From the NCBI GenBank assembly GCA_035498555.1, contig DATKAB010000127.1, positions 1 through 25,360 on the forward strand: a stretch of DNA of 25,360 nt. The letters run 5' to 3'. Every line of letters starts with the position of its first letter. Positions within the stretch are counted from its first letter, which is position 1. The notes beneath the pieces are model-generated. The model had not been told where the DNA came from, searched no databases, and was given only the letters and a program-made list of their open reading frames with translations. Source of the stretch: Candidatus Sulfotelmatobacter sp. (GTDB lineage Bacteria > Eisenbacteria > RBG-16-71-46). Below are positions 1,394 to 19,558 of the stretch, piece after piece. Made by a program: the position numbers and the translations under genes.

Positions 1394-2535
1394 CGGCCGC
1401 GTCGCGGAGCGGCTCGCCGGCTCTTCGAGGCCGAACGCCGGGTGCGCGAAGCGTTCGCCGCAGCACGCTTCACCGGCTTGCGGCGGCTCGCGGCCGCGAC
1501 CGCGCGCTTCTTGCGCTCGAGCGTGCGCCGCTCGGCCTCGCGCAGATGTCCGGAGGCCGGGCGCAATCTCACGCGCTCGGGATCGTTGGAGCGCAGGGGC
1601 TTCCGGCGCGTTCCCGCAGGACCCTCGCCGCGAACCGTCGCGGTCTTGCGGCGCGCCTTCGCCGCACCGGCGCCGTTCGTGCCCGCCGACTTCTTCGGCT
1701 TGTACGCCGGCTTGATCGCCACGCGGCTGGTCGCGCGCGCGGCCTTGCGCGCCGGGCTGCGCATCGCGGCCTGATGCGGCGAGTCGTCCTCGTAGGACTC
1801 CGCCAGGTCTTCCGGTGCCGGAGCGTGGCGCGGGCCGCTCTCGCGGAACAGCACCACGTTTCCATCCGGATCTTCGATCTCGGCGAAGCGACCATACCGC
1901 TGCTCGACCGGCCCGCCGCTGAAATCGAGGCCGCGGCCGATCAGCTCGTGGTGCAGCTCCTCCAGGCTCGGCGCCGCCAGCCCGACTACGATCGGCTGCG
2001 CGTTGTGGCGAAGCTCGTCGGTCGCGGAGACGCGCGGATGCAGCGTGAGCCGGGTCGCGCCGGTGTCGAACTCCGTCCACCAGGTGGACTGGACGAGCGG
2101 CCTGAGTCCGAATCGATCGCGATAGAAGGTGGTGGCCGTCACCATGTCGCCCACGTTCAGGATCAGCGAATTGAGCGTGGGTCCGGCGCCGGATGGCGCG
2201 GGCGTCGAAGGCTGCAGCAGCGAGATCAGGTTGCCGTCGCCATCGAAGTAGCTGGCGGCGCGACCGAGATCGAAGTTCTCGATCTCCTCGGGGTCGAGGC
2301 CCTGCTCGTGAAGCTCGGCCAGCGCCTCCTCGAGATCTTCGGTTTCGAAGCGCCCGATGATTCCCTGGCGCTTGGGATCGTCGACCCGGCGAAGGGCGAG
2401 CGAGGCGCCGGCGGTGTCGAAGGCGATCCAGCCCCGCGAGGTGGCGCGAGCCGGAAGCCCGAGCCCGCGTTCATAGAACTCCCGCATGTCGTCGAAGCGG
2501 TCGGTGAATATCGCTACGTAAATCAGCCTGCGCAT
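1390..2535 (-). CDS. tandem VOC (glyoxalase/bleomycin-resistance/dioxygenase fold) protein with about 115-aa Lys/Arg/Ala/Pro-rich C-terminal tail
   Basis: Track ORF, 381 aa. Two VOC-like modules (MRRLIYVAIFTDRFDDMREFYERGLGL... and LNSLILNVGDMVTATTFYRDRFGL...DPDGNVVLF). They are followed by ...KAARATSRVAIKPAYKPKKSAGTNGAGAAKARRK...RRKPVKRAAANASRTRRSASKSRRAAPRRGR, a basic histone-H1/AlgP-like tail. The start lies 9 nt downstream of the ALDH stop. Confidence 0.75.
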   Translation of the reverse strand: MRRLIYVAIFTDRFDDMREFYERGLGLPARATSRGWIAFDTAGASLALRRVDDPKRQGIIGRFETEDLEEALAELHEQGLDPEEIENFDLGRAASYFDGDGNLISLLQPSTPAPSGAGPTLNSLILNVGDMVTATTFYRDRFGLRPLVQSTWWTEFDTGATRLTLHPRVSATDELRHNAQPIVVGLAAPSLEELHHELIGRGLDFSGGPVEQRYGRFAEIEDPDGNVVLFRESGPRHAPAPEDLAESYEDDSPHQAAMRSPARKAARATSRVAIKPAYKPKKSAGTNGAGAAKARRKTATVRGEGPAGTRRKPLRSNDPERVRLRPASGHLREAERRTLERKKRAVAAASRRKPVKRAAANASRTRRSASKSRRAAPRRGR

Positions 2536-2543
2536 GAAGGCAA

Positions 2544-4007
2544 TTACTCCAAATTCATCCAGACGCTCTTCACCTGCGTCACGTCGCGCAACGAGTCGGG
2601 GCCGAGATCGCGCCCGAATCCGGATTGCTTGAAACCCCCGAAAGGCATGCCGGGATCATAGAAATTGTAGAGATTCACCCACACCGTGCCGGCGTTGATC
2701 CGCCGCGCCACCTGGTGGGCCTTCTTCACGTCGCGGGTCCACACGCCGGAAGCGAGCCCGAACTCCACGTCGTTGCCCTTCTGGACCGCGTCGTCGACGT
2801 CGTCGAACGCGATCACCGCCAGCACCGGGCCGAAGATCTCCTCCTGCGCGACACGCATGGAGTTCTCGACGTGGTCGAGCACCGTTGCCTGCACGAACGC
2901 GCCCTTGCCGTTCACCGGCTGGCGCTCTCCGCCGGCGACCAGCTTCGCGCCTTCCTGGACCCCGATCTTCACGTAGTCGAGCACGCGATTCATCTGCTTC
3001 GCGCTGACCAGCGAGCCCAGCCGCGTCTTGGGGTCGAGCGGATCGGCCGGCACCAGCTTCCTCGCGCGCTCGGTCAGCTTCGCCACGAACTCGTCGCGGA
3101 TCGAGCGCTCGACCAGCACGCGGGAACCGGCGGCGCAGACTTCGCCCTTGCCGTAGAAGATGCCGGTGGTGGCGCCGCGCACCGCAGCCTCGAGATCGGC
3201 GTCGGCGAACACGATGTTGGGCGACTTGCCGCCCAGCTCGAGCGTGAGCTTCTTCACGCTCTCGGCGCCTTCCCGCATGATCAGCTTGCCGACCTCGGTC
3301 GACCCGGTGAACGAGATCTTGTCCACGCCCGCATGCCGCACCAGCGCCATGCCGACCACGCTGCCCGGACCGGGCACCACGTTGAGCACGCCCGGCGGCA
3401 GGCCGGCCTCGAGCGCCAGCTGGCCGATGCGGATCGCGGTGAGCGGCGTTTCGGCGGCCGGCTTCAGCACCACGCAGTTGCCGGCGGCCAGCGCGGGCGC
3501 GCACTTCCACCCCACCATGATCATCGGGAAGTTCCACGGAATGATCGCGCCGATCACGCCGATCGGTTCGCGCAGCGTGTAGGTGAACCAGCTCGGGCTC
3601 ACCGGAATGGTGTCACCGTAGAGCTTGGTGGCCCAGCCGGCGAAGTAGTGGAAGCAGCTCGCCACCATCGGCACGTCGATCTGGCGCGATTCGAAGATCG
3701 GCTTGCCGTTGTCGAGCGTTTCGAGCCGCGCGATCTCGTCGGCGTGCTCGAGGATCAGATCGCCGAGCTTCCACAGGATGCGCTGGCGTTCCGCCGGCCG
3801 CATGCGCGGCCAGGGTCCGCTCTCGAACGCCGCGCGGGCGGCGCGCACCGCGCGCTCGACATCCTCGATGCCGGCTTCCGCCACGGTGGTGATCACTTCC
3901 TCCGTGGCGGGATTGGTGGTGGTGAAGGTGCGGCCGGAGGCGGCGTCCACCGCTTCGCCGTTGATGATCAGTCGCGCGGGGGCCACCGGCGCGAGCGTGT
4001 CGGTCAT
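2544..4007 (-). CDS. NAD(P)-dependent aldehyde dehydrogenase
   Basis: Track ORF, 487 aa. ALDH hallmarks: ELGGKSP, catalytic Cys in GKGEVCAAGSR, and FGGFKQSGFGR. RBS GGAG sits about 8 nt upstream of the ATG at 4007. Confidence 0.93.
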   Translation of the reverse strand: MTDTLAPVAPARLIINGEAVDAASGRTFTTTNPATEEVITTVAEAGIEDVERAVRAARAAFESGPWPRMRPAERQRILWKLGDLILEHADEIARLETLDNGKPIFESRQIDVPMVASCFHYFAGWATKLYGDTIPVSPSWFTYTLREPIGVIGAIIPWNFPMIMVGWKCAPALAAGNCVVLKPAAETPLTAIRIGQLALEAGLPPGVLNVVPGPGSVVGMALVRHAGVDKISFTGSTEVGKLIMREGAESVKKLTLELGGKSPNIVFADADLEAAVRGATTGIFYGKGEVCAAGSRVLVERSIRDEFVAKLTERARKLVPADPLDPKTRLGSLVSAKQMNRVLDYVKIGVQEGAKLVAGGERQPVNGKGAFVQATVLDHVENSMRVAQEEIFGPVLAVIAFDDVDDAVQKGNDVEFGLASGVWTRDVKKAHQVARRINAGTVWVNLYNFYDPGMPFGGFKQSGFGRDLGPDSLRDVTQVKSVWMNLE

Positions 4008-4049
4008 GATTTTTTTCTCCAGAGAATCAAAGGCCTAAGACAGTCAAAC

Positions 4050-4568
4050 CTAAATCTTATTCGCGGCGCGCCAGCGCCGAATCGCGGCCGCGTGATGGCG
4101 ATCGTGCGCGTGCAGCGCTTCCATCATCCAGCCAAATGGATGCTCCGGTTGCCAGATCGTGGACGGCTCCTCGGGAACCGTGGCCAGCCGTTCCTGCAGC
4201 TCGCGGCGCGTGGCGTCGAGCAGCCCCAGCGCCTGCTCCCAACTGTGCGAGCGCAGCTCGCCGACTTCGCGCGCGTTGAGCTGCGCGTACTCCGGCGCCT
4301 CGTGGCCGCGCCAGCTCGGCTGCGCGCCGCTGATCGCCGCCTCCATCTCGCGCACCCGGGCGCGATCGCGCGCCACCAGATGGAGCACGGTCTCGCGCGC
4401 GTTCCACTTCCCCTGCCCCATCGGCCGTTCCGCGTCGCGTGGGGTGAGGCCGGCGATCGCGTCGAGCAGCTCGGCGCGCGCCGTGGCCAGCGCCGAGATC
4501 ACTCGCGCGCGCGTCCAGGGCTCGGCGGCGGGCTCACCGGCGGCGCGTGCGGCGATGTCGGACGGCAT
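4050..4568 (-). CDS. DinB-superfamily (DinB_2/YfiT-like) metal-dependent protein
   Basis: Track ORF, 172 aa. His-containing helices (HLVARD ... HAHDRHHAAAIRRW) are typical of the DinB/YfiT four-helix-bundle family. RBS GAGGAGG sits 5 nt upstream of the ATG. It is paralogous to the C-terminal domain of the next gene upstream. Confidence 0.65.
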   Translation of the reverse strand: MPSDIAARAAGEPAAEPWTRARVISALATARAELLDAIAGLTPRDAERPMGQGKWNARETVLHLVARDRARVREMEAAISGAQPSWRGHEAPEYAQLNAREVGELRSHSWEQALGLLDATRRELQERLATVPEEPSTIWQPEHPFGWMMEALHAHDRHHAAAIRRWRAANKI

Positions 4569-4582
4569 GGAAACCTCCTCGA

Positions 4583-5323
4583 TCAGGTGTGGGACGCGGT
4601 CTCGCTGGGCGTTCCGCCGGCGCGCGCCTGCTTGAGGCGCCCGGCGTGGTGACGATCGTGCTTCGAGAGAATGCGCACCAGCCAGCCGAGCGGATGTTCG
4701 GAAGTCCAGATCTCGGCCGGCTCCTCGGGCAGCGACTGAAGAGCCTCGATCAGCGCCTCGCGCGCCTGCTGCAACATCCGCTTCGCCGTTTCCCAGTCGT
4801 GTCCGGCGAGCTCGCGCTGCGACGATTCGTTCTCGGCCAGGATGTCGTCCATGGTGTGGGGCGGCCGGATCCCACGCTGATAGGTCTTTTCCACCCAGGG
4901 CAGCATCTCACGATCCCAGTAGTAGACGTGGAGCACGACCTGGCGGGGCGACCACTTGCCGTCGGCGATCGGGACCTCGGCCGAGGCGGCGGTCATGCCC
5001 TGGACGGCCGCCGAAAGCTCGACCCGTGCGCGCACCAGATCGAACAGGGCGAGATCCTTGGCGGTGGCCGTGGCGAGAGCGCCGGCGAATGGTTTCGCGG
5101 CCGGGCGCTTGCGCGCGCCCGCGCGTGCTTTCGCGGCGCGCGGCTTCGAGCGCCTCACGAGTTTGAGGGCGGGCTTCTTCTTCGGGGCGCGCTTCCCGCC
5201 CGGCCGTCTCGCAACCGGTCGCTTCGCGGCGGACTTCCTGGCCGCCGATCTCCTCGCGGCTGCTTGCTTCGAAGCGGATTTTCGGGCGGGCCGCTTCCCG
5301 GACGGCTTCTTCGCCGGGCTCAT
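4583..5323 (-). CDS. DinB-superfamily protein with about 85-aa Lys/Ala/Arg/Pro-rich N-terminal tail
   Basis: Within track ORF 4583..5647. I placed the start at the ATG at 5323, which overlaps the TGA of the upstream dehydrogenase (ATGA). N-terminus MSPAKKPSGKRPARKSASKQAAARRSAARKSAAKRPVARRPGGKRAPKKKPALKLVRRSKPRAAKARAGARKRPAAKP, then a DinB-like domain (GKWSPRQVVLHVYYWDREM ... KHDRHHAGRL). The upstream part of the track ORF overlaps the dehydrogenase gene and was discarded. Confidence 0.65.
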   Translation of the reverse strand: MSPAKKPSGKRPARKSASKQAAARRSAARKSAAKRPVARRPGGKRAPKKKPALKLVRRSKPRAAKARAGARKRPAAKPFAGALATATAKDLALFDLVRARVELSAAVQGMTAASAEVPIADGKWSPRQVVLHVYYWDREMLPWVEKTYQRGIRPPHTMDDILAENESSQRELAGHDWETAKRMLQQAREALIEALQSLPEEPAEIWTSEHPLGWLVRILSKHDRHHAGRLKQARAGGTPSETASHT

Positions 5324-6180
5324 GACGCGCCCTCGTACTCGTAGACTCCGCGGCCCACCTTGCGCCCGAGCCGGCCTGCCGCCACGTACTGCTCCATGAG
5401 CGGGCAGGGACGGAATTTCTCGCCCAGGCTCCGGTGCAGGAATCTGAGAATCGCGAGGCGCGTGTCGAGGCCCACCAGATCCACCAGCTCGAACGGCCCC
5501 ATCGGATGGTTGAGACCGAGCTTGAGAGCCTTGTCGATGTCGCGCGCCGAGGCCACGCCTTCCTGCAGCATGTAGAAGGCCTCGTTGCCGATCATGGCGT
5601 TGATGCGACTGGTCACGAACCCCGGAGACTCGCGCACCACTACGCACTCCTTCTGCATCGCCGCGCCGACTTCACAGGCGACGGCGAGGGTCTGGTCGCT
5701 GGTCTCGAGCGCGCGGACGATCTCGAGGAGCTTCATTCGCGGCACCGGATTGAAGAAGTGCATGCCGATCACGTGCCCGGGCCGGCGGGTGGCGGCGGCC
5801 ATCTCGGTGATCGAGAGCGACGAGGTGTTGGAGGCGAGGATCGCCTGCGGCGGCGCCGTGCGATCGAGCTGAGCGAACAGCTGCACCTTGAGCTCGATGT
5901 TCTCGGGCGCCGCCTCGATCACCAGATCGGCGCGACCCACCGCCTCGGCGAGTGCGCGCACCGTCTCGAGATTCTTCTGTGCGGCCGCGGCCGCCGGTCC
6001 TTCGACCTTGCCGATCGCCACGCCCTTCTCGAGATTGGCGGAGATGTCGGCCGTCGCACGCTCGAGCTGCGCTCCGTCGGGATCCTGCAGCAACGTGCGG
6101 AAGCCCCCGAGTGCCGACACGTAGGCGATGCCGCGACCCATGATGCCGGCACCCAGCACGGCGATGGTTCGCACGCTCAC
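5320..6180 (-). CDS. 3-hydroxyacyl-CoA (3-hydroxybutyryl-CoA) dehydrogenase
   Basis: C-terminal 286 aa of track ORF 5320..6363. Rossmann motif IAVLGAGIMGRGIA, then NTSSLSITE, HFFNPVP and an HBD C-terminal domain. Start set at the GTG near 6180 (VSVRTIAVLGAG); the GTG at 6174 is an alternative. The upstream in-frame extension is Pro/Arg low-complexity sequence. Confidence 0.88.
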   Translation of the reverse strand: MSVRTIAVLGAGIMGRGIAYVSALGGFRTLLQDPDGAQLERATADISANLEKGVAIGKVEGPAAAAAQKNLETVRALAEAVGRADLVIEAAPENIELKVQLFAQLDRTAPPQAILASNTSSLSITEMAAATRRPGHVIGMHFFNPVPRMKLLEIVRALETSDQTLAVACEVGAAMQKECVVVRESPGFVTSRINAMIGNEAFYMLQEGVASARDIDKALKLGLNHPMGPFELVDLVGLDTRLAILRFLHRSLGEKFRPCPLMEQYVAAGRLGRKVGRGVYEYEGAS

Positions 6181-6881: not shown

Positions 6882-6930
6882 GAAACTAGCACGCGATTGC
6901 GGGTCCGGCAACCTCGCTATGCTAGGTTTC
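6882..6930. promoter_or_regulatory. imperfect inverted repeat GAAACTAGCA-N28-TGCTAG(G)TTTC in the bioY/atuA divergent intergenic region
   Basis: Read directly from the sequence. The right arm ends about 7 nt before the atuA ATG and contains its AGG Shine-Dalgarno. It is a candidate operator or an SD-sequestering RNA stem. Confidence 0.4.
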
Positions 6931-6937
6931 CGGCGCC

Positions 6938-8782
6938 ATGGCCGACAGCATTCGCATCGCCAACGCGGGTGGTTACTGGGGAGACGATCTCCGCCAGTTT
7001 CGGCGCCAGGTCGAGCTCGGTCCCGTCGATTACGTGACGCTCGATTTCCTTGCCGAGATCACCATGTCGATCATGCAAAAGCAGCGCGCGCGCGATCCGC
7101 GCGCCGGCTACGCGCGTGACTTCGTGGCGCAGGTGCGCGAGACGCTGCCGCTGCTGCTCGAACGCGGCGTGCGCGCGATCTCGAATGCCGGCGGCGTGAA
7201 CCCGCTCGCCTGTCGTGGCGCGCTGCTCGAGATGGCGCAGCTCGAAGGAAAGTCGCTCGACGTCGCCGCCGTGGTCGGCGACGATCTGATGGAGCGACTC
7301 GGCGAGCTGAACGCACTGGGCGTCTCGCTCGACGACATGGACACCGGTGCGAGGTTCTCCTCGATTCGCGATCGCGTGTCGTCGGCCAACGCTTACTTCG
7401 GCGCCTGGCCGGTGGTCGAAGCCCTGCGCGCCGGTGCGCAAGTCGTGGTCACCGGGCGCTGCACCGACACCGGCATCACCCTCGCGCCGATGATCCACGC
7501 CTTCGGCTGGGCGCCGGACGACTGGGACCGGCTGGCCGCCGGGATCGTCGCCGGCCACATCGTAGAGTGCGGGGCCCAGAGCACCGGCGGCAATTTCACC
7601 GACTGGCGGACGATCCCACGCCTGGCCGACATCGGCTATCCGCTGCTCGAGGTGTTCGCCGACGGTTCGTTCATCGTCACCAAGCACGCCGGCACCGGCG
7701 GTCGCGTGACGAAGCGCACCGTGAAGGAGCAGCTGGTCTACGAAATGGGAGATCCGCGCGCCTACATCACGCCCGACGTGGTCGCGGATTTCGGCACGAT
7801 TCGGCTCGAACAGGTCGGGCGCGACCGCGTGCGCGTATGGGGAGTCCGCGGGCGGCCGGCGCCGTCGATGCTCAAGGTGAGCGCCTCGTACTTCGACGGC
7901 TGGAAGGCGAGCGGCACGCTGATCCTGTGCGGGCCCGAGGCCGCCGCCAAGGCGCGCGCGTTCGCCGAGCTGTTCTGGAAGCGCCTCGACCTCCGCTTCG
8001 CCGCGACCCACACCGAGCTGGTCGGACTCTCGTCGTGCTGGGGCCCGCTGTCGCCGGCCACCGAGGCGCCGGAAATCCTGCTGCGGCTCTCGGTGCGCGA
8101 TCCCGATCGCGAGAGGGTCGAGCAGTTCTCGAAGATGGTGCCGGCCGTGATTCTCTCCGGGCCGCCGGGCGTGGCGGTCACGGGCGGCCGGCCGCAGGCG
8201 CAGGAAGTGGTGGCGTACTGGCCGGCGCTGGTGCCGCGCGATCACGTCAAGGCGCGGCTGGTCACGCGTGACGGCGAGCGCACGCTCGACTGGCCGACGC
8301 CGCTGCTGCCGCCGCAGCGACCGGCGCCACTGCGCGGCGAATCGTGGCCGCGCGCGCGGGGAGATCGCAAGCTCGTGAAGACACCGCTCTCGGCGCTCGC
8401 GCACGCGCGCAGCGGTGACAAGGGCGACACTGCGAACATCGGCCTGATCGCGAGAGCGCCCGAGATCTATCCGTGGCTGCGGAGCACCCTCACCGCCGCG
8501 GTGGTCAAACGGCGCTTCAAGGGCATCTGCCTGGGGCGCGTGGAACGCCACGAGGTCCCGAACCTCGGGGCGCTCAATTTCCTGCTCCACGAATCGCTCG
8601 GCGGCGGCGGCACGGTCTCGTTGCGCCTCGATGCCCAGGGCAAGACCTTGTCGCACGCACTGCTCGCCATGGAAGTGACGGCGCCGCGCGCGTTGCTCGA
8701 CGCCGCGAAGCGCGGCGATGCGGCCGACGGCTCGCGGGCGAAGGCGGCCGGCGCCGCGAAGCAGCGGCGCGGCCGGCGCTGA
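6938..8782 (+). CDS. atuA: AtuA-like protein (acyclic terpene utilisation family, DUF1446 plus C-terminal domain)
   Basis: Track ORF, 614 aa. N-terminus MADSIRIANAGGYWGDD... and overall length and organisation match AtuA/DUF1446 proteins. It is divergent from bioY and the beta-oxidation-like operon. Confidence 0.75.
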   Translation: MADSIRIANAGGYWGDDLRQFRRQVELGPVDYVTLDFLAEITMSIMQKQRARDPRAGYARDFVAQVRETLPLLLERGVRAISNAGGVNPLACRGALLEMAQLEGKSLDVAAVVGDDLMERLGELNALGVSLDDMDTGARFSSIRDRVSSANAYFGAWPVVEALRAGAQVVVTGRCTDTGITLAPMIHAFGWAPDDWDRLAAGIVAGHIVECGAQSTGGNFTDWRTIPRLADIGYPLLEVFADGSFIVTKHAGTGGRVTKRTVKEQLVYEMGDPRAYITPDVVADFGTIRLEQVGRDRVRVWGVRGRPAPSMLKVSASYFDGWKASGTLILCGPEAAAKARAFAELFWKRLDLRFAATHTELVGLSSCWGPLSPATEAPEILLRLSVRDPDRERVEQFSKMVPAVILSGPPGVAVTGGRPQAQEVVAYWPALVPRDHVKARLVTRDGERTLDWPTPLLPPQRPAPLRGESWPRARGDRKLVKTPLSALAHARSGDKGDTANIGLIARAPEIYPWLRSTLTAAVVKRRFKGICLGRVERHEVPNLGALNFLLHESLGGGGTVSLRLDAQGKTLSHALLAMEVTAPRALLDAAKRGDAADGSRAKAAGAAKQRRGRR

Positions 8783-8914
8783 GGCCCGCCCTTCCTCCCG
8801 CGCCACCCCCAGACTCTTGCGCATGCTCGCTCGGCCCTCGATACTCATCGCATCCCGAGCGACGCCCGCGGCGGAACGTTGCCGCGGTCACCGCTATTCG
8901 CAGGAGGAAGTGCC

Positions 8915-9531: not shown

Positions 9532-9564
9532 TGACATCAGAATGATATCATAATGACATCAACG
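9532..9564. promoter_or_regulatory. three tandem 11-bp repeats TGACATCAgaa / TGATATCAtaa / TGACATCAacg (AT-rich operator/promoter)
   Basis: Read directly: gTGACATCAgaaTGATATCAtaaTGACATCAacgAGGAGGggccagATG. Each 8-mer is palindromic or near-palindromic, and the 11-bp period equals one helical turn. It sits immediately upstream of the SPFH gene's RBS. It is the most AT-rich stretch in the window. Confidence 0.6.
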
Positions 9565-9576
9565 AGGAGGGGCCAG

Positions 9577-10446
9577 ATGATTCGCGAAAAAGAAGTGAGC
9601 GCCCGGTCGGGCGGATTCATGTTCCTGGTGGTGCTGGCGCTGTTCTTCGGCTCGATCTGGGGGATCATTCACAATGCGTCGCACGGCTCGCCCCCGGGCG
9701 TGATCCTCTCGGTACTGGGGGTGGCGGTCGCGGTGCTGGGAGTGTTCGGACTCACGGTGGTCAATCCCAACCAGTCCCAGGTGGTTCAGCTGTTCGGCAG
9801 CTACAGCGGCACGCTTCACCAGCCCGGCTTCTGGTGGGTGAATCCTTTCACCACGCGGCGCAGGATCTCGGTGCGCGTCCGCAACTTCGAGAGCGCCAAG
9901 CTCAAGGTGAACGACCACGATGGCAATCCCATCGAGATCGCGGCGGTGGTGGTGTGGCGGGTGGTGGACACCGCCGAGGCGCTGTTCGAGGTCGACAATT
10001 ACGAGAACTTCGTCAAGGTCCAGACCGAGGCGGCGGTGCGCAATCTCGCCTCGACGCATCCGTACGACGCGCACGGCGATGGCCAGATGTCGCTACGCAG
10101 CAACATCCAGGAGGTGGCCGAGGACCTCAAGAAGGAGATCCAGGCCCGCCTCACCAAGGCCGGCGTGGAAGTGATCGAGGCGCGCATCAGCCACCTCGCC
10201 TACGCGCCCGAAATCGCCAGCGCCATGCTGCAGCGCCAGCAGGCGAGCGCGATCGTGGCGGCGCGCACCAAGATCGTCGAGGGCGCGGTGGGCATGGTCG
10301 AGATGGCGCTCGCGGAGCTGTCGCAGCGCCACGTCGTCGAGCTCGACGGCGAGCGGCGAGCGGCGATGGTGAGCAATCTGCTGGTGGTGCTGTGCAGCGA
10401 TCGCCACGCTCAGCCGGTCGTCAACGCCGGCACCATCTATCAATAG
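9577..10446 (+). CDS. SPFH/band-7 (stomatin/prohibitin-like) membrane protein
   Basis: Within track ORF 9553..10446, start at ATG 9577 (MIREKEV...) with GAGGAGG upstream. Two N-terminal TM helices, then an SPFH domain ([15 protein letters not shown]...; [21 protein letters not shown]; coiled-coil C-terminal part). Confidence 0.82.
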
Positions 10447-10467
10447 GCCGGCCGGAGCGAGGCGCAG

Positions 10468-10656
10468 GTGGCGGACCGGAAGCCCTTCCTGCTGAGGCTG
10501 GACCCCGCGGTGCTCGAAGCCCTGCAGCGCTGGGCCAACGATGATCTGCGGAGTCTCAACGGACAGATCGAATTCCTGTTGCGGCGCGCGCTCGCCGACA
10601 CCGGACGCGCGCCGCGTACTCCCGGCGAAAAATTGCAACGAAAGCCACGCTCATGA
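10468..10656 (+). CDS. Arc/MetJ-type ribbon-helix-helix DNA-binding protein
   Basis: Track ORF, 62 aa, GTG start. KPFLLRLDPAVLEALQRWANDDLRSLNGQIEFLLRRAL matches the Arc-family RHH pattern (beta-strand then two helices). GGAG/GAGG lie 5-10 nt upstream. Confidence 0.65.
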   Translation: MADRKPFLLRLDPAVLEALQRWANDDLRSLNGQIEFLLRRALADTGRAPRTPGEKLQRKPRS

Positions 10657-11195
10657 TCTCCGACGATTCGCAGAATCCCTCGCCCGCCGACTTCGCCGCC
10701 GTGGACTGGCGTCGGGTCGATACCCTCCAGTGGACGCAGCCGCGTCGGTTCGTGCGGCGCTGGGAGTTGAACGACGGCGATCAGCCGGTTGCCGCACTTC
10801 GCTGGCGCGGGCCGTGGCGGCCGGGCTTCGACGCGGTGACGCGCGGCGGGGCGTGGCAAATCGACAGGAGTTTCTGGCTCGGACTGGACCTCCGACGGCC
10901 GGGAGAAGAAGAGCCCGAGATCCGCGTGCGCGCCAGCTGGCTCGGCCGAGCGCGAATCGAGCGATCCCAGGGCGAGGCCGTCCGCTGGCGGAGGGACGGC
11001 TGGGGCTTCAGCCGGCGCCGCATCGAGACGGCCGAAGGAACTCCGCTGATCCATTTCCAGATGGACCCCGGGTTCTTCCGCCACGACGGCCAGATCGCGA
11101 TCGAGTCGGAAGCGCGCTCGCTCCCCGATCTCGAGCCCCTCATTCTGGTGGGCTGGGGGCTGCTGGTCTCGGCTCACCGCCAGCACGCGCACTAG
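10653..11195 (+). CDS. hypothetical protein (Trp/Arg-rich, internal repeat), translationally coupled to the RHH gene
   Basis: Track ORF, 180 aa. Its ATG overlaps the RHH TGA (ATGA). I found no recognisable family. There is a possible internal repeat: AALRWRGPWRPGF...GGAWQI versus AVRWRRDGWGFSRRRIETAEGTPLI. Confidence 0.55.
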   Translation: MISDDSQNPSPADFAAVDWRRVDTLQWTQPRRFVRRWELNDGDQPVAALRWRGPWRPGFDAVTRGGAWQIDRSFWLGLDLRRPGEEEPEIRVRASWLGRARIERSQGEAVRWRRDGWGFSRRRIETAEGTPLIHFQMDPGFFRHDGQIAIESEARSLPDLEPLILVGWGLLVSAHRQHAH

Positions 11196-11341: not shown

Positions 11342-11414
11342 GGAGCCAATCGGTCGGAGTGAAGCGACCGGGCCTCTCGGTGCCAGTACTCCCGGCTGTC
11401 GGAAGGAAGGAAAC

Positions 11415-11819
11415 ATGTCTCGTAGGACGGTTCTCGCGCTCCCGGTCGCGGTGGGCTTGATCGCCTTCGCGCTCTTTGCGCAATCCGGCTGCTCCAAGAG
11501 CAGCCCGACTTCGCCATACGGCGGCGGCGGAGGCGGTGGCGGCGGTGGTGGCGGCACGGTGGAGCCATTCTCCTCGGGGAATTTCACCTCGAGCAATGCG
11601 CAAGGGTTCGTGCATACCTTCACCAACACCGGCAGCTTCGGCTACACCTGCACAATCCACAACATGCCCGGCACGATCAACGTCGCGGCCAGCGGGCCGG
11701 ACTCGGTGACGGTCGACATCGTCAACTTCGCCTTCTCGCCGAATCCCGCGTCGGTGAAGACCGGAGGCTACGTGCACTGGATCAACACCGTGGCCACCGC
11801 GCACAACGTGACGCGATAG
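11415..11819 (+). CDS. cupredoxin-like (amicyanin/plastocyanin-type) lipoprotein with Gly13 linker; apparently circularly permuted
   Basis: Track ORF, 134 aa. Signal peptide plus lipobox-like FAQSGC, then GGGGGGGGGGGGG. Next comes GSFGYTCTIHNMPGTINV, resembling the C-terminal Cys-His-Met ligand loop of cupredoxins (compare GTYDYHCTPHPFM). After that, FSPNPASVKTGGYVHWINTVATAHNV resembles the N-terminal beta2-beta4 region with the first His ligand (compare FEPAELTVKVGDTVTWINREAMPHNV). AAGGAAGGAAAC precedes the ATG. Confidence 0.7.
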   Translation: MSRRTVLALPVAVGLIAFALFAQSGCSKSSPTSPYGGGGGGGGGGGGTVEPFSSGNFTSSNAQGFVHTFTNTGSFGYTCTIHNMPGTINVAASGPDSVTVDIVNFAFSPNPASVKTGGYVHWINTVATAHNVTR

Positions 11820-11839
11820 ATCGCGCGACGACTTCCCCG

Positions 11840-11876
11840 GCGGCCGGCGTTCGCACGACGAGCGCCGGCCGCTTTG
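11840..11876 (+). terminator. putative intrinsic terminator after cupredoxin gene
   Basis: 10-bp perfect GC stem GCGGCCGGCG / CGCCGGCCGC with a 13-nt loop, then TTTGCGTGGGCTTG (short U-tract). Confidence 0.5.
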
Positions 11877-11941
11877 CGTGGGCTTGAAGATAACGCTCCT
11901 CCACTCCGCGACGCTGTCGCGCGCACGCCACATCCCCGACC

Positions 11942-12080: not shown

Positions 12081-12551
12081 ATGAAGACCCTGAACGAACA
12101 TCGCCGCGTGATCTCGACGCTGATGATGAGTCTGGTCGCGGCCACACTTCTCGCGCAGACCGCGAGTGCGGGCAACGCGTGGGGACACTCGAAGCGCTGG
12201 AAGCCCGGCCCGCCGGCGCGCGAGATCGGCTGGGTCGCACCGCCCGCGCCCGTGTACGTGGTGCATCACTCCGACGCCGGCCCGATCTTCGCCGGACTGG
12301 TGGGCGGGCTGATCCTCGGCGCGGCGCTCGCCAACGCACACCCGGCGGTGCACGTCCAGTATTCGTACTGGGATCCGTACTGCCAGGAGAGCTTCTCGTC
12401 GCTCGCGGCCTACGACGCGCACTTGCGATACCACCATCATCCGCAGTTCGTGCGCGTGATCGACGCGTCGAATGGACGCTGCGTGCGGGAGCTGAGCTGG
12501 AGCGATCGCGGCTGGCAGCCGTGCGAGCACAGCGGCGAGTGGCACGACTAG
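12081..12551 (+). CDS. small secreted His/Cys-rich protein of unknown function
   Basis: Within track ORF 11874..12551, start at ATG 12081 (MKTLNEHRRVISTLMMSLVAATLLAQTASA...) with GAGGAGG 5 nt upstream. Signal peptide, then HHSD, HPAVHVQY, HLRYHHHPQF and paired Cys (PYCQ, GRCV, QPCEH). Confidence 0.6.
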   Translation: MKTLNEHRRVISTLMMSLVAATLLAQTASAGNAWGHSKRWKPGPPAREIGWVAPPAPVYVVHHSDAGPIFAGLVGGLILGAALANAHPAVHVQYSYWDPYCQESFSSLAAYDAHLRYHHHPQFVRVIDASNGRCVRELSWSDRGWQPCEHSGEWHD

Positions 12552-12752: not shown

Positions 12753-14219
12753 CTACGCCGCCAGCAGCTCGTTGGTCTTGTGAGTGTGCTCTTCGGGGCG
12801 CAGGACGCGCGCCACGCGCTCGCTCGGCGCCATCGGGTCCCAGAACTCGGGCGCGTCCTCGGCCGGCGCGCTGCCGTCCGGGCGGACGATGACGCGGCAG
12901 TGCGGGCGCACCAGGTCGTTCGGATTCGGGCTGACCGCGATCACCACGCAGCGTGACTCGGTGAGCAACACCGAGCCCGGCGGATAGAGCCCGGTGGTGC
13001 GGGCCAGCGCCCACAGCACCGCCGGATCGAATCCCACTCGCGCGGGGCCGAACAGATACTGCAGAGCCTCGAACGCGGTGCGCGGGCGCTTGGCGTAGAC
13101 GCGGTGCGCGGTCATCGCGTCGAAACAGTCGGCCACCGCGACGATGCGCGACATGGTGGACTGGCCCCATTCCGCCTGCACGTCGGGATAACCCGTGCGA
13201 TCGAAGTTCATGTGGTGTTCGAGGCAAACCCGCATCGTGTCTACCATCAGCGTGGACAACCCCGGCATGCGGATCATCGACTTGACGCCTTCGATCGGAT
13301 GCCGGCGCATCATCATCCATTCCTCGGCCGAGAGCGCCGCCGGCTTGCGGAGCACGTCGCCGGGCACCGCGATCTTGCCGAGGTCGTGCATCAGGCCCGC
13401 GACCCCGAGATCGGCCAGCGCCTGGCGCGGAAGTCCGAGCGCTTGCCCCATGCTCACCGACAGGATGCTCACGTTCACACAATGCGCGTAGGTGTATTCG
13501 TCGTGATCCTTGAGGGCGGTGAGGCCGACGATCGAATACTCGTGGTTCATGATGCCGTCCACGATCGGCTGGACCAGGCGTTTCGCGTGGCGGAGGTCGG
13601 GGCGCCCGGTCTGCATGGTGCGCACCACGATCTTCTTGGTGCCCAGCACCGCGCGCCAGAACACGCGCCGCGCGCGGCCACGCTCGGCCTCGGGCGTCTT
13701 CTCCCTGCTCTCCTCGAGGCTGCGCGTCAGCTCGTCGTCCTCCAGCTCGAGCGCCGGCACCGGCACGATGTGCTCAATGCTGGCCTCGCGAACCGCCTCG
13801 ACCAGCCGCTCGGAAATCGCGGGATCGTCGGCCGCCAGGAAGAGCTGGAAGAATCGCTCGAATTCCGCAGGCGTCGCGCCCTGGAGCACGCGCACGCCGC
13901 CGAGCGAGCGGCGCTCGAACTCCTGCATCAGCCCGTGATAGACGGTGAGCAGCGAGGCCTGCGCCTTGATACGCACGCCATTGAGATAGAAGTAGTCGGC
14001 CACCGCCACCAGCGCGACTTCGTCCTCGTGCTCGAGGATGCGGCTGAAGACCGAGATGCAATCGTGGAGCTGTTTCTGGAACGCCTGGTTCGCGATGTCG
14101 TAGGTGCGGCCGGTGCGCAGCAACGCCGACAGGCGCACCAGCAGCGACGGGCCGTGTTGCAGGGCGTCGTTTTCGTCGTCGCCCGAAAGGACCGGCGGGT
14201 TCGTGATCGGGTCAGCCAC
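12753..14219 (-). CDS. HD-GYP domain phosphohydrolase (c-di-GMP phosphodiesterase family) with about 230-aa uncharacterised N-terminal domain
   Basis: Track ORF, 488 aa. HD-GYP motifs: LMHDLGKIAVP ... RRHPIEG ... LEHHMNFDRTGYPD. The GTG start at 14219 overlaps the upstream gene's TGA by 8 nt. There is no receiver domain. Confidence 0.82.
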   Translation of the reverse strand: MADPITNPPVLSGDDENDALQHGPSLLVRLSALLRTGRTYDIANQAFQKQLHDCISVFSRILEHEDEVALVAVADYFYLNGVRIKAQASLLTVYHGLMQEFERRSLGGVRVLQGATPAEFERFFQLFLAADDPAISERLVEAVREASIEHIVPVPALELEDDELTRSLEESREKTPEAERGRARRVFWRAVLGTKKIVVRTMQTGRPDLRHAKRLVQPIVDGIMNHEYSIVGLTALKDHDEYTYAHCVNVSILSVSMGQALGLPRQALADLGVAGLMHDLGKIAVPGDVLRKPAALSAEEWMMMRRHPIEGVKSMIRMPGLSTLMVDTMRVCLEHHMNFDRTGYPDVQAEWGQSTMSRIVAVADCFDAMTAHRVYAKRPRTAFEALQYLFGPARVGFDPAVLWALARTTGLYPPGSVLLTESRCVVIAVSPNPNDLVRPHCRVIVRPDGSAPAEDAPEFWDPMAPSERVARVLRPEEHTHKTNELLAA

Positions 14220-15963
14220 GGGCGTGGAATCCCGCCAGCGCCTCTTCGCAGGCCTTGCGAAGTGGCAGGCGTTTGGAGGTGATGCCGCGCTCGAGGATCA
14301 GCCGGGCCGCCGGCGTGCCGACGCGCGCGATGGCGCGCGCGATCGCCTGGCGGTGGACCTCCTGGTTGCGCGAGAACCAGTTGCCCTTGTGCAGCTCGGC
14401 CTCGAGCTCGGGCAGATTGGGATTGTCGGCGGCGGCACCGAGGCACGTGTAGATGGCGCGCTTTTCCTCGGCCGGGCGCGCGTCGAAGTCCTCGGCTTGC
14501 ATGATGCGCATGACCACGCGCGCAACGCCGGTGTCGCGCGCAACCGAGAGCTGGTGCAGCGCCGCGAGCAGCAGGCGCGAATCCGCGCCGTCGATCATGC
14601 GCAGCAGCAGCGGCCGCGCGAGCCGCGGATCCACCTGGCCGAGCGCCGCCACCACCTCCTGCTTCACGCGCGGATCGGGATTGCGCAAGGCGGACTGAAG
14701 CAGTCCGACGATCGCCGGCGACCCGATCCAGCCCAGGATGTGAACGACGTTGCGCACCACGAACCAGCGCGGGTCGGCGATCCAGGGCGCGAGCCGCTCG
14801 GGATTGTCCTTGCAGCGCTCGGCGATCGCCTCCGCCAGCAACCGCCGAACCAGCCGGTTCTGGCTCTCGGCCAGCACGTGGTTGAAGACGTCCACGGCCG
14901 GCGGGCCGAATTCCGAGGCGAACGCCACGAATTCCGCCCCGGAAGCCTCGTGGGCGTCGAGCCGCTCGACCAGATTCGTCACCGAGATCGGCTGCAGCAG
15001 GTCCTGCACGAAGCGTTCGGGCGCCCACTCGTTGTTGGGACACTCCCGCAGCATCAGCAGCGCGGCGCGCGCCTCGAGCCAGTTGCCCTGCGCCACCGCC
15101 TGGCGCAGCAGGCGCGGCAGGAAGCGTCCCATCTCGAGGCGGTCATCGGCGTTCGCGCCGGCCGCCAGATACGCCTGGCTGATGGCGATCGACGCGGTGA
15201 GAATCGGCACCTGATGCTCGGCCTGGTATTCGTGCTGGAAGCGCTGGGTCTCCTGCTTGGAGAGCGCCTCGAGCTCCTCGAATCCCGCCTCGATCTCGAC
15301 GGTCTCGTCGCCGGCTGTCCAGTCGTCGGAGCGGTCCTCGCGCGAGCCGTTCTCCACGGTCTCGACGGTCGCCGCTTCGGCCGGAGCGGCATTGGGATCT
15401 TCGGCCGGCGGCGCCGGCCAGGGCAGCAGCGGCGCCTCCTCCTCCTGCGCCGGAGCGTCGGGCCCCGTGCCCACGTCGCCTTCGGTGGGCACGAAATCGA
15501 TCTCGATGTGCTGGAGCTGCGCTTCCCACAGCAGCGTGACCAGGTCATCTTCGGCCTGGGTCTGCGAGGTGACATGCATCACCGCGTCGAGCAGCGTGTC
15601 GACCTCGCTCGCCTGGAGGCCGGGTTGGAGCGTCAGGCCACGAACGCCGTCGCGGAAGAATGCCAGCGCCAGATTGTCGTCGCGCGATTTCGCCGGATAG
15701 AGCGACACCTCCTCGCACAGAACGTCCTCGGAGCTGAATCGCAGCCGCATCGGACCGTGCTCATCGAGCACGCGCGCGGCGGCGGCCGCCAGCTCGGATC
15801 GGAAGCGTACGACGGTCGGATTGTTCGCGTCGTACAGCCGGCAGGTCTTGAGCGTGCGCGCGAACTGGTTGATCCACACACCGGCGGCGCGTGCGGTCGC
15901 TTCCTGCTCGGGCGTGAGCGCGGCAGGCGGGTCCGCGCTCCGGGCGCGGACAGTCTCGTTCAT
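14212..15963 (-). CDS. HEAT-repeat (PBS-lyase-like) protein with uncharacterised N-terminal domain and acidic linker
   Basis: Within track ORF 14212..16149, start at ATG 15963 (MNETVRARS...) with GGAG about 10 nt upstream. C-terminal HEAT-like repeats (RNVVHILGWIGSPAIVGLLQSALRNPDPRVKQEVVAALGQVDP...). Acidic Pro/Glu/Asp-rich middle segment. N-terminal about 150 aa of unknown fold. Confidence 0.72.
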   Translation of the reverse strand: MNETVRARSADPPAALTPEQEATARAAGVWINQFARTLKTCRLYDANNPTVVRFRSELAAAAARVLDEHGPMRLRFSSEDVLCEEVSLYPAKSRDDNLALAFFRDGVRGLTLQPGLQASEVDTLLDAVMHVTSQTQAEDDLVTLLWEAQLQHIEIDFVPTEGDVGTGPDAPAQEEEAPLLPWPAPPAEDPNAAPAEAATVETVENGSREDRSDDWTAGDETVEIEAGFEELEALSKQETQRFQHEYQAEHQVPILTASIAISQAYLAAGANADDRLEMGRFLPRLLRQAVAQGNWLEARAALLMLRECPNNEWAPERFVQDLLQPISVTNLVERLDAHEASGAEFVAFASEFGPPAVDVFNHVLAESQNRLVRRLLAEAIAERCKDNPERLAPWIADPRWFVVRNVVHILGWIGSPAIVGLLQSALRNPDPRVKQEVVAALGQVDPRLARPLLLRMIDGADSRLLLAALHQLSVARDTGVARVVMRIMQAEDFDARPAEEKRAIYTCLGAAADNPNLPELEAELHKGNWFSRNQEVHRQAIARAIARVGTPAARLILERGITSKRLPLRKACEEALAGFHARG

Positions 15964-16258
15964 CGTCGAAGTACTCCGGTTCTTCGAGCCTGGCTGGTGC
16001 GGGAAGGAGTCGCGGAGGTTATCGGCGGCGCCCGAGCCCGCCTTGAGCCGCATCGGGGCCTGGCCGATCCGGCAACTCAAAGCCAGAACACGAGCTAGTG
16101 GTCGTGGCGCGCGAGGAGCGCCGGGGCTCGCGCCTGCCCCGCGGCGCATACGGAAGCCGGTTTGCCGCGCCGGGAAGCGCGAGCCTTGACCCGTCCCCAG
16201 TTCCCTGCAAACACTGGGCGGTTCTCCGTCTCCCCGCCGATTTGGAGGTTCCCCGAAG

Positions 16259-19558
<3,300 letters not shown>

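Follow-up and report, generated by a model that had tools for sequence, protein, structure and literature searches.

A predicted lipid-anchored cupredoxin with swapped domain halves and its family in uncultured bacteria

The locus and its surroundings

The analysed window, a stretch of 25,360 nt with a GC content of 68.7%, carries on its forward strand a complete gene for a small exported protein composed of a predicted lipoprotein signal peptide, a flexible tether and one cupredoxin domain whose two halves stand in reverse order. The features of the gene and its downstream neighbour are as follows.

11401-11413, forward strand: purine-rich Shine-Dalgarno-like stretch GGAAGGAAGGAAA, just 5' of the ATG, read from the sequence
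11415-11819, forward strand: complete CDS of the permuted cupredoxin, a predicted lipoprotein, with ATG start, 134 aa and TAG stop at 11817-11819
11415-11492, forward strand: predicted signal peptide, sequence MSRRTVLALPVAVGLIAFALFAQSGC, whose last residue is the lipobox Cys26 (codon 11490-11492)
11493-11555, forward strand: flexible tether Ser27-Gly47 (SKSSPTSPY plus Gly12), with the Gly12 run (residues 36-47) at 11520-11555
11556-11684, forward strand: equivalent of the C-terminal half of a cupredoxin (strands 5-8), placed by phmmer, alignment and model strands
Within 11556-11684, forward strand: ligand-loop codons of Cys79 (11649-11651), His82 (11658-11660) and Met84 (11664-11666)
11685-11699, forward strand: five-residue connector Ala91-Pro95 (AASGP), joining what are the termini of a standard cupredoxin
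11700-11816, forward strand: equivalent of the N-terminal half of a cupredoxin (strands 1-4), placed by phmmer, alignment and model strands
Within 11700-11816, forward strand: codon of the fourth ligand, His130 (11802-11804), four residues before the C-terminus
11839-11873, forward strand: GC-rich hairpin with a 15-bp stem and a 5-nt loop, followed by UUU; possible weak intrinsic terminator
12081-12551, forward strand: exported protein, the downstream neighbour, with a glycine zipper and a YWDPYC...H...HxHP motif, without a Pfam hit

The signal peptide exhibits a basic n-region and a hydrophobic core, followed by Q-S-G-C26, in which Gln at lipobox position -3 is atypical. A Cys equivalent to Cys26 is kept in 116 of 118 homologues, mostly preceded by L/A-x-G/A/S. 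The tether of homologues, measured from this Cys to a conserved Phe (Phe52 in the window protein), spans 11-29 residues rich in Gly, Pro, Ser and Thr. In the window protein the glycine run counts 12 residues and not the 13 given in the earlier note, and the mature domain after the tether comprises 87 residues. No promoter consensus was found near the Shine-Dalgarno-like stretch.

The hairpin begins 20 nt past the stop codon, and the region 11817-11885 folds at -41.5 kcal/mol, with a z-score of -3.67 against shuffled sequences. The terminator hairpin proposed in the earlier note thus stands as a hairpin and is possibly a weak terminator; the consensus terminator scan did not call it, owing to a U-tract of only three residues. 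Beyond the stop at 11819, cupredoxin-like coding potential was absent from every frame. A hidden Markov model of the family scored 131 bits on the ORF and returned no other match, and thus no second cupredoxin, elsewhere in the window.

The gene lies in a gene order common to the window, to contigs of Candidatus Eisenbacteria metagenome-assembled genomes (MAGs) and to related metagenome contigs: Band_7, ribbon-helix-helix (RHH) protein, unknown protein, permuted cupredoxin, exported Cys/His-motif protein, HD-GYP and HEAT_2 (both on the minus strand), and Tricorn protease. The upstream block (9553-11195, forward strand) encodes a Band_7/SPFH protein, a 62-aa RHH protein and, starting in an overlap with the RHH stop, an unknown protein of 180 aa. 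The downstream block (12753-19558) contains the HD-GYP and HEAT-repeat proteins, which overlap by 8 nt on the minus strand, and the Tricorn-type protease. Loci L012, L014 and L020 show the gene order of the window block, and L012 carries between the Band_7 block and the permuted cupredoxin an insertion (1737-5833) that encodes a DtxR-type metal-dependent repressor and an ApbE flavin transferase, along with three further unknown genes, of which one has an Aq_1264_TM domain.

In L003, L012 and L014 the gene immediately after the permuted cupredoxin encodes a homologue of the exported neighbour at 12081-12551; in L020 the homologue comes two genes further on. The neighbour has a signal peptide, an RRYK-like basic patch and a glycine-zipper segment (AGPxxAGLIGGLILGA), and an alignment of its family (A5) reveals invariant Y, D, P, Y, C, S, H and P. 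Its motif YWDPYCxExFxSLxxYRAHxxxHxHP looks like a metal site by its residue pattern, and its link to the permuted cupredoxin is one of association only.

Other clades of the family occupy unrelated gene contexts. In the branch ending in HTVTS[ND] (L016 3780-6387, L017 764-3371, L018 3254-6402), the gene stands downstream of a divergent AraC-type regulator (Cupin_6 plus HTH_18), with a variable enzyme gene between the two: a methyltransferase in L016 and L017 and an FAD/BBE oxidase in L018. No linked redox partner, whether oxidase, reductase or cytochrome, was found in the 25-kb window or at eight homologous loci, and no methylamine-utilisation (mau-type) genes were found in the window.

Order of the halves and predicted fold

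Comparison of the window protein with PDB sequences by phmmer places its two parts on amicyanin in reverse order. Residues 61-83 match amicyanin 74-96, covering the strand and loop with Cys79 and His82, with Met84 next, while residues 94-132 match amicyanin 17-55, the N-terminal half whose first His corresponds to His130 and whose match ends in the first-His motif W-I-N-x4-H-N-V. The amicyanin N-terminal half had been quoted slightly wrongly in the earlier note; the PDB sequence reads ...KMKYETPELHVKVGDTVTWINREAMPHNV. The Pfam model PF00127 (Copper-bind) likewise recognises the protein as two swapped stretches, with 29.4 bits against a gathering cut-off of 21.2 bits.

De-permutation in silico, in which residues 94-134 were placed before 48-93 without a linker, raised the PF00127 score to 33.2 bits in a single stretch covering positions 5-98 of 99. 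The de-permuted sequence also gives single-stretch matches to amicyanin 20-96, to plastocyanin 13-85 and to the C-terminal cupredoxin domain of a Cu nitrite reductase (9cck 337-408), with the artificial junction HNVTR/TVEPFSSG aligning gap-free to HTVTDNENSFDSG of 9cck. The window protein therefore holds exactly one cupredoxin domain's worth of sequence, matched end to end. Relative to a standard cupredoxin, the chain is opened in the loop between strands 4 and 5 and closed where the old termini were. The type-1 ligand set is complete, comprising Cys79, His82, Met84 and His130, and its order is Cys-His-Met...His where canonical cupredoxins have His...Cys-His-Met. All elements of the standard domain are present, none being duplicated or missing, which is the definition of a natural circular permutant. 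The swapped halves, the presence of all four type-1 ligands in swapped order and the Cys-x2-His-x-Met spacing had each been read from the DNA in the earlier note, and these readings hold.

Assignment to a named subfamily is not supported by NCBIfam, whose equivalog cut-offs lie well above the scores obtained: 26.9 against 110.2 for amicyanin (TIGR02657), 22.4 against 87.85 for plastocyanin (TIGR02656) and 15.2 against 109.85 for pseudoazurin, with halocyanin also far under its cut-off. The protein is thus a cupredoxin by sequence, ligands and predicted fold, and is not an amicyanin, plastocyanin or pseudoazurin by the NCBIfam thresholds.

AlphaFold2, run on the 119-sequence family alignment, produced a model with a pLDDT of 95.3 and a pTM of 0.86. 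The confident model rests on this alignment, as a run on three sequences gave an unusable pLDDT of 50.4. The model is a predicted Greek-key beta-sandwich of nine strands (mature residues 6-10, 17-21, 26-32, 37-44, 50-56, 59-61, 65-68, 72-77 and 83-86), which correspond one-to-one, in this order, to cupredoxin strands 5, 6, 7, 8, 1, 2a, 2b, 3 and 4. The connector block (residues 41-50 of the model) reaches a pLDDT of 98. In the model the four ligands would converge on one site.

The best structural neighbour of the model is an engineered circularly permuted azurin, 5SYD, at 14% sequence identity, so that the cupredoxin-like fold anticipated in the earlier note is borne out by prediction. The match covers 73 of the 87 residues of the model, and not all of them, because the two chain openings are offset by one strand. 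A Foldseek search against the PDB gave no significant match (best E-value 1.7), with the permuted azurin 5yt7_C at rank 26; sequential structure aligners are expected to fail on a permuted topology.

By sequence, 5SYD (cpAz, or cpN42-azurin) consists of azurin residues 43-128, the pentapeptide GIPGG and azurin residues 1-39, its native termini being joined by five residues as in the natural family. In contrast to that family it is man-made and azurin-based, has 131 aa and retains the azurin helix insert; its chain is cut just before the strand of His46, keeping the ligand order His-Cys-His-Met, whereas in the natural family the chain opens immediately past the equivalent strand. A second engineered permuted azurin, cpAz3 or cpF114 (PDB 5YT7), is also among the closest known systems. 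Both of these, cpN42 and cpF114, are reported to remain close to the wild type in their structural characteristics (bioRxiv 10.1101/2025.10.10.681544).

Among natural proteins, the small amicyanin- and plastocyanin-like cupredoxins (PF00127) share with the window protein the ligand set, the motifs in both halves and export, and amicyanin has the short loop Cys-x2-His-x2-Met that is found in most of the permuted family. These proteins keep the standard order of halves, whereas the permuted family has it swapped, and the window offers neither a methylamine dehydrogenase nor a photosynthetic context.

Family conservation and the ligand loop

A single-sequence, word-indexed search recovered only two homologues, both with the same order and the same stop, and a family-profile search extended the family to at least 117 clusters at 90% identity, of 107-158 aa. 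An exhaustive profile search over 1.84 billion representatives added the single-stretch small proteins P0080, P0116, P0128, P0132 and P0149. The resulting alignment A4, with 119 rows, is the basis of the family counts and was the AlphaFold2 input. Databases otherwise call these homologues "hypothetical protein", and the JGI label "plastocyanin" on some of them is a generic domain name.

The Cys-x2-His-xn-Met loop (at about 50-100) precedes the W...H-x-V segment (at about 95-146) in all 117 scorable small homologues, and in 110 of 117 the chain ends 4-5 residues past the second His (HTVTRP, HTVTSN/SD or HNVTR), the tail taking the form H-x-V-T-R(-P) or HTVTS[ND]. The swapped order is thus a family trait with a conserved stop, and in no scored homologue does the gene run on into a second domain, the arrangement that the earlier note had named as fatal to its reading. 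Across A4 the Cys, His and Met ligands and Trp122 are invariant (119/119), and the second His ligand, equivalent to His130, is retained in 117. Small residues are frequent in the connector between the two halves (last strand of one to first strand of the other), whose length is nearly fixed, with 5 residues in 96 sequences, 6 in 20 and 7 in 3. In P0170 and P0191 the strand-4 His is lost (His to Arg and His to Pro, respectively) and Cys, His and Met are kept; these may be three-coordinate or inactive variants.

The gene occurs on the independent contigs L001, L002, L003, L012, L014, L016, L018, L019 and L020. Against the closest homologue, in L002 (81% identity over the mature part), the mature domain gives a dN/dS of 0.16, a ratio that indicates purifying selection at the sequence level. 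Only this pair was used, as saturation of synonymous sites in this 69% GC genome makes the values for more distant homologues (0.29-0.89) unreliable. A scan of a genome collection, whose narrow patterns say little on taxonomic range, returned one permuted homologue (L003, in a Candidatus Eisenbacteria MAG), its other eight loci being cupredoxins of standard order.

The number of residues between the His and Met ligands was counted by anchoring on the M-x-G-T motif, as counting to the first Met mis-scores loops of the HVSMGMTGT type. The spacer is 1 in six sequences, 2 in 66, P0132 being an example, 3 in seven, 4 in 33 and at least 6 in five. Spacer 1 occurs in the window loop, CTIHNMPGT, in P0001 and in four sequences with CRFHPM. 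A review (PMC6115626) describes the loop of amicyanin, with spacer 2, as the shortest natural type-1 loop, and an engineered loop one residue shorter as the minimum that can still bind a type-1 site. [quoted passage not shown] At this length the axial Met of the window protein may bind weakly or with altered geometry. P0262 and P0264 have an extra Cys within their long ligand loops (CTIHSTSCGNGM and CTIHSASCGTGM, respectively), which might alter the metal site.

Origin, probable function and alternative explanations

The closest sequence relatives found are tandem-repeat cupredoxins. The top-scoring matches of the profile search are long tandem arrays, matched in as many as 16 stretches, and the query aligns to them over the junctions between domains. 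Against the two-domain P0114 the query shows 43% identity over 83 residues, and the aligned segment (P0114 108-185) runs from the C-terminal half of domain 1 across a 6-residue linker into the N-terminal half of domain 2; in P0003 it aligns across domain junctions repeatedly in the same manner, identities across the junctions ranging over 38-43%. Such junction-spanning alignments are the signature expected of permutation by duplication with loss of both outer half-domains, and by this sequence signature the most likely source of the family is a tandem cupredoxin, through duplication followed by loss of the first and last half-domains. The tandem proteins differ from the window protein in having complete standard-order domains (two in P0114, about ten in P0003) and variable, often Pro-rich linkers, where the window protein has one domain and a fixed five-residue connector. 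P0003 itself is a protein of 1154 aa with about ten tandem cupredoxin domains, Pro-rich linkers and a C-terminal membrane segment, in some repeats of which the Cys and His ligands are lost (e.g. GYHDRIVNGM).

The earlier note had offered circular permutation of a cupredoxin and a remnant of a tandem cupredoxin as two possible readings. The former is supported by the order in homologues, the one-domain content and the predicted fold. The latter appears apt as history, given the junction alignments, and fails as a description of a decayed fragment, the protein belonging to a conserved, selected, single-domain family. Although the sequence does resemble the middle of a tandem cupredoxin, a non-functional remnant or an artefact, such as a truncated or frameshifted two-domain gene or an assembly error, is extremely improbable: more than 100 distinct homologues from independent assemblies share the start architecture and the stop, the ligands are invariant, and the gene has its own signal peptide and putative lipobox, a Shine-Dalgarno-like site on its 5' side and a hairpin on its 3' side. 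Frameshift, assembly artefact and decay were rejected on the family conservation, the dN/dS of 0.16 and the lack of any cupredoxin-like continuation past the stop.

We hold with good confidence that the ORF encodes a lipid-anchored periplasmic type-1 (blue) copper protein with a single cupredoxin domain, a natural circular permutant for which copper binding is predicted. The signal peptide would direct export and Cys26 would be lipidated, the tether of about 21 residues, including Gly12, keeping the 87-residue domain at the membrane surface. The first part of the domain would supply the counterparts of strands 5-8 together with the ligand loop Cys79-x2-His82-x-Met84, after which the chain would cross the five-residue connector closing the old N- and C-termini and finish with strands 1-4, leaving His130 four residues from the new C-terminus. 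The new termini would lie in the strand 4/strand 5 loop of a complete domain, with nothing lost or duplicated. The folded sandwich would bind one Cu and shuttle single electrons between periplasmic or membrane redox partners. Judged from the encoded sequence, the protein most likely functions as a membrane-tethered periplasmic one-electron carrier, because the type-1 ligand set is intact and invariant and the cupredoxin sits on a predicted lipid anchor and a tether. The lipid-modified azurin Laz of Neisseria and the membrane-tethered auracyanins likewise combine an anchor, a flexible low-complexity tether and one periplasm-facing cupredoxin domain; they differ in having the standard strand order and in belonging to the azurin and auracyanin subfamilies.

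The same sequence could also fold as a domain-swapped dimer or head-to-tail oligomer, in which the two halves go to different sandwiches and each Cu site is built from two chains. The resemblance to tandem cupredoxins at their junctions, which bring together halves of two different domains, is compatible with this arrangement, as is the similar length (6 residues) of the linker between the two domains of P0114, and the structure prediction was for the monomer only. Nevertheless, that monomer model is very confident, the connector included, and matches a single-chain engineered permutant; the connector has 5-6 residues in 116 of 119 sequences, the length that closes the azurin termini in 5SYD, whereas linker length in tandem arrays ranges between about 6 and more than 25 residues. 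Obligate dimerisation to form the site would also be less parsimonious in a lipid-anchored protein, and we judge this arrangement unlikely. A permuted cupredoxin might instead serve periplasmic copper sequestration or resistance, copper delivery or sensing, perhaps together with the 12081-12551 protein. The absence of a nearby cytochrome, oxidase or reductase fits such roles, as do the YWDPYC...H...HxHP neighbour that follows the gene at four related loci, the DtxR-type metal regulator inserted upstream at one homologous locus (L012), the minimal His-x-Met loop, which may perturb a classical type-1 site, and the loss of the second His in two family members. Set against these points, the complete type-1 ligand set is essentially invariant, as in electron carriers, the protein lacks His/Met-rich copper-trafficking motifs, and the neighbour is conserved within one clade only, the contexts of other clades being unrelated. 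Genes of electron-carrier cupredoxins are, moreover, often unlinked to those of their partners. Roles of this kind are accordingly quite unlikely, and electron transfer by a monomeric permutant remains the preferred reading.

Cupredoxins are among the best-studied metalloprotein folds and a standard system for the tuning of a metal site by its scaffold, and the permuted azurins 5SYD and 5YT7 were built to test how chain connectivity relates to the type-1 site and to folding. No description of a natural circularly permuted cupredoxin was found in open-access full text, and the family appears to be a natural equivalent of a rearrangement until now achieved only by protein engineering. As a natural, diverse and selected family with almost the same rearrangement, it can be regarded as the evolutionary counterpart of the permuted-azurin experiment. 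We lean, if only slightly, towards the joint proposal that no natural family of circularly permuted type-1 copper proteins was recognised before this one, which would be widespread and lipid-anchored in Candidatus Eisenbacteria as well as in other uncultured bacteria of soil and sediment, and derived from tandem cupredoxins by duplication and end trimming, with a Cys-x2-His-x1-Met loop in some members, the window protein among them, that is shorter than any natural type-1 loop described and equal to the engineered minimum. The family supplies dozens of sequences whose His and Met are separated by anything from 1 to 7 or more residues, as well as a ligand, His130, placed four residues before a free C-terminus. 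It also offers a clean case for the model of permutation by duplication, because the presumed tandem parents are still present in the databases. Standard domain models see the family only as two weak fragments.

Elsewhere in the window, two opposite-strand ORFs overlap, one of 643 aa at 6917-8848 on the minus strand, whose product has no Pfam hit, and one of 614 aa at 6938-8782 on the forward strand. The segment 212-6363 on the minus strand holds a fatty-acid or aldehyde catabolism cluster encoding a thiolase, an aldehyde dehydrogenase, a DinB_2 protein and a 3-hydroxyacyl-CoA dehydrogenase. The thiolase ORF has a 233-aa extension before Thiolase_N, and its true start probably lies further in.
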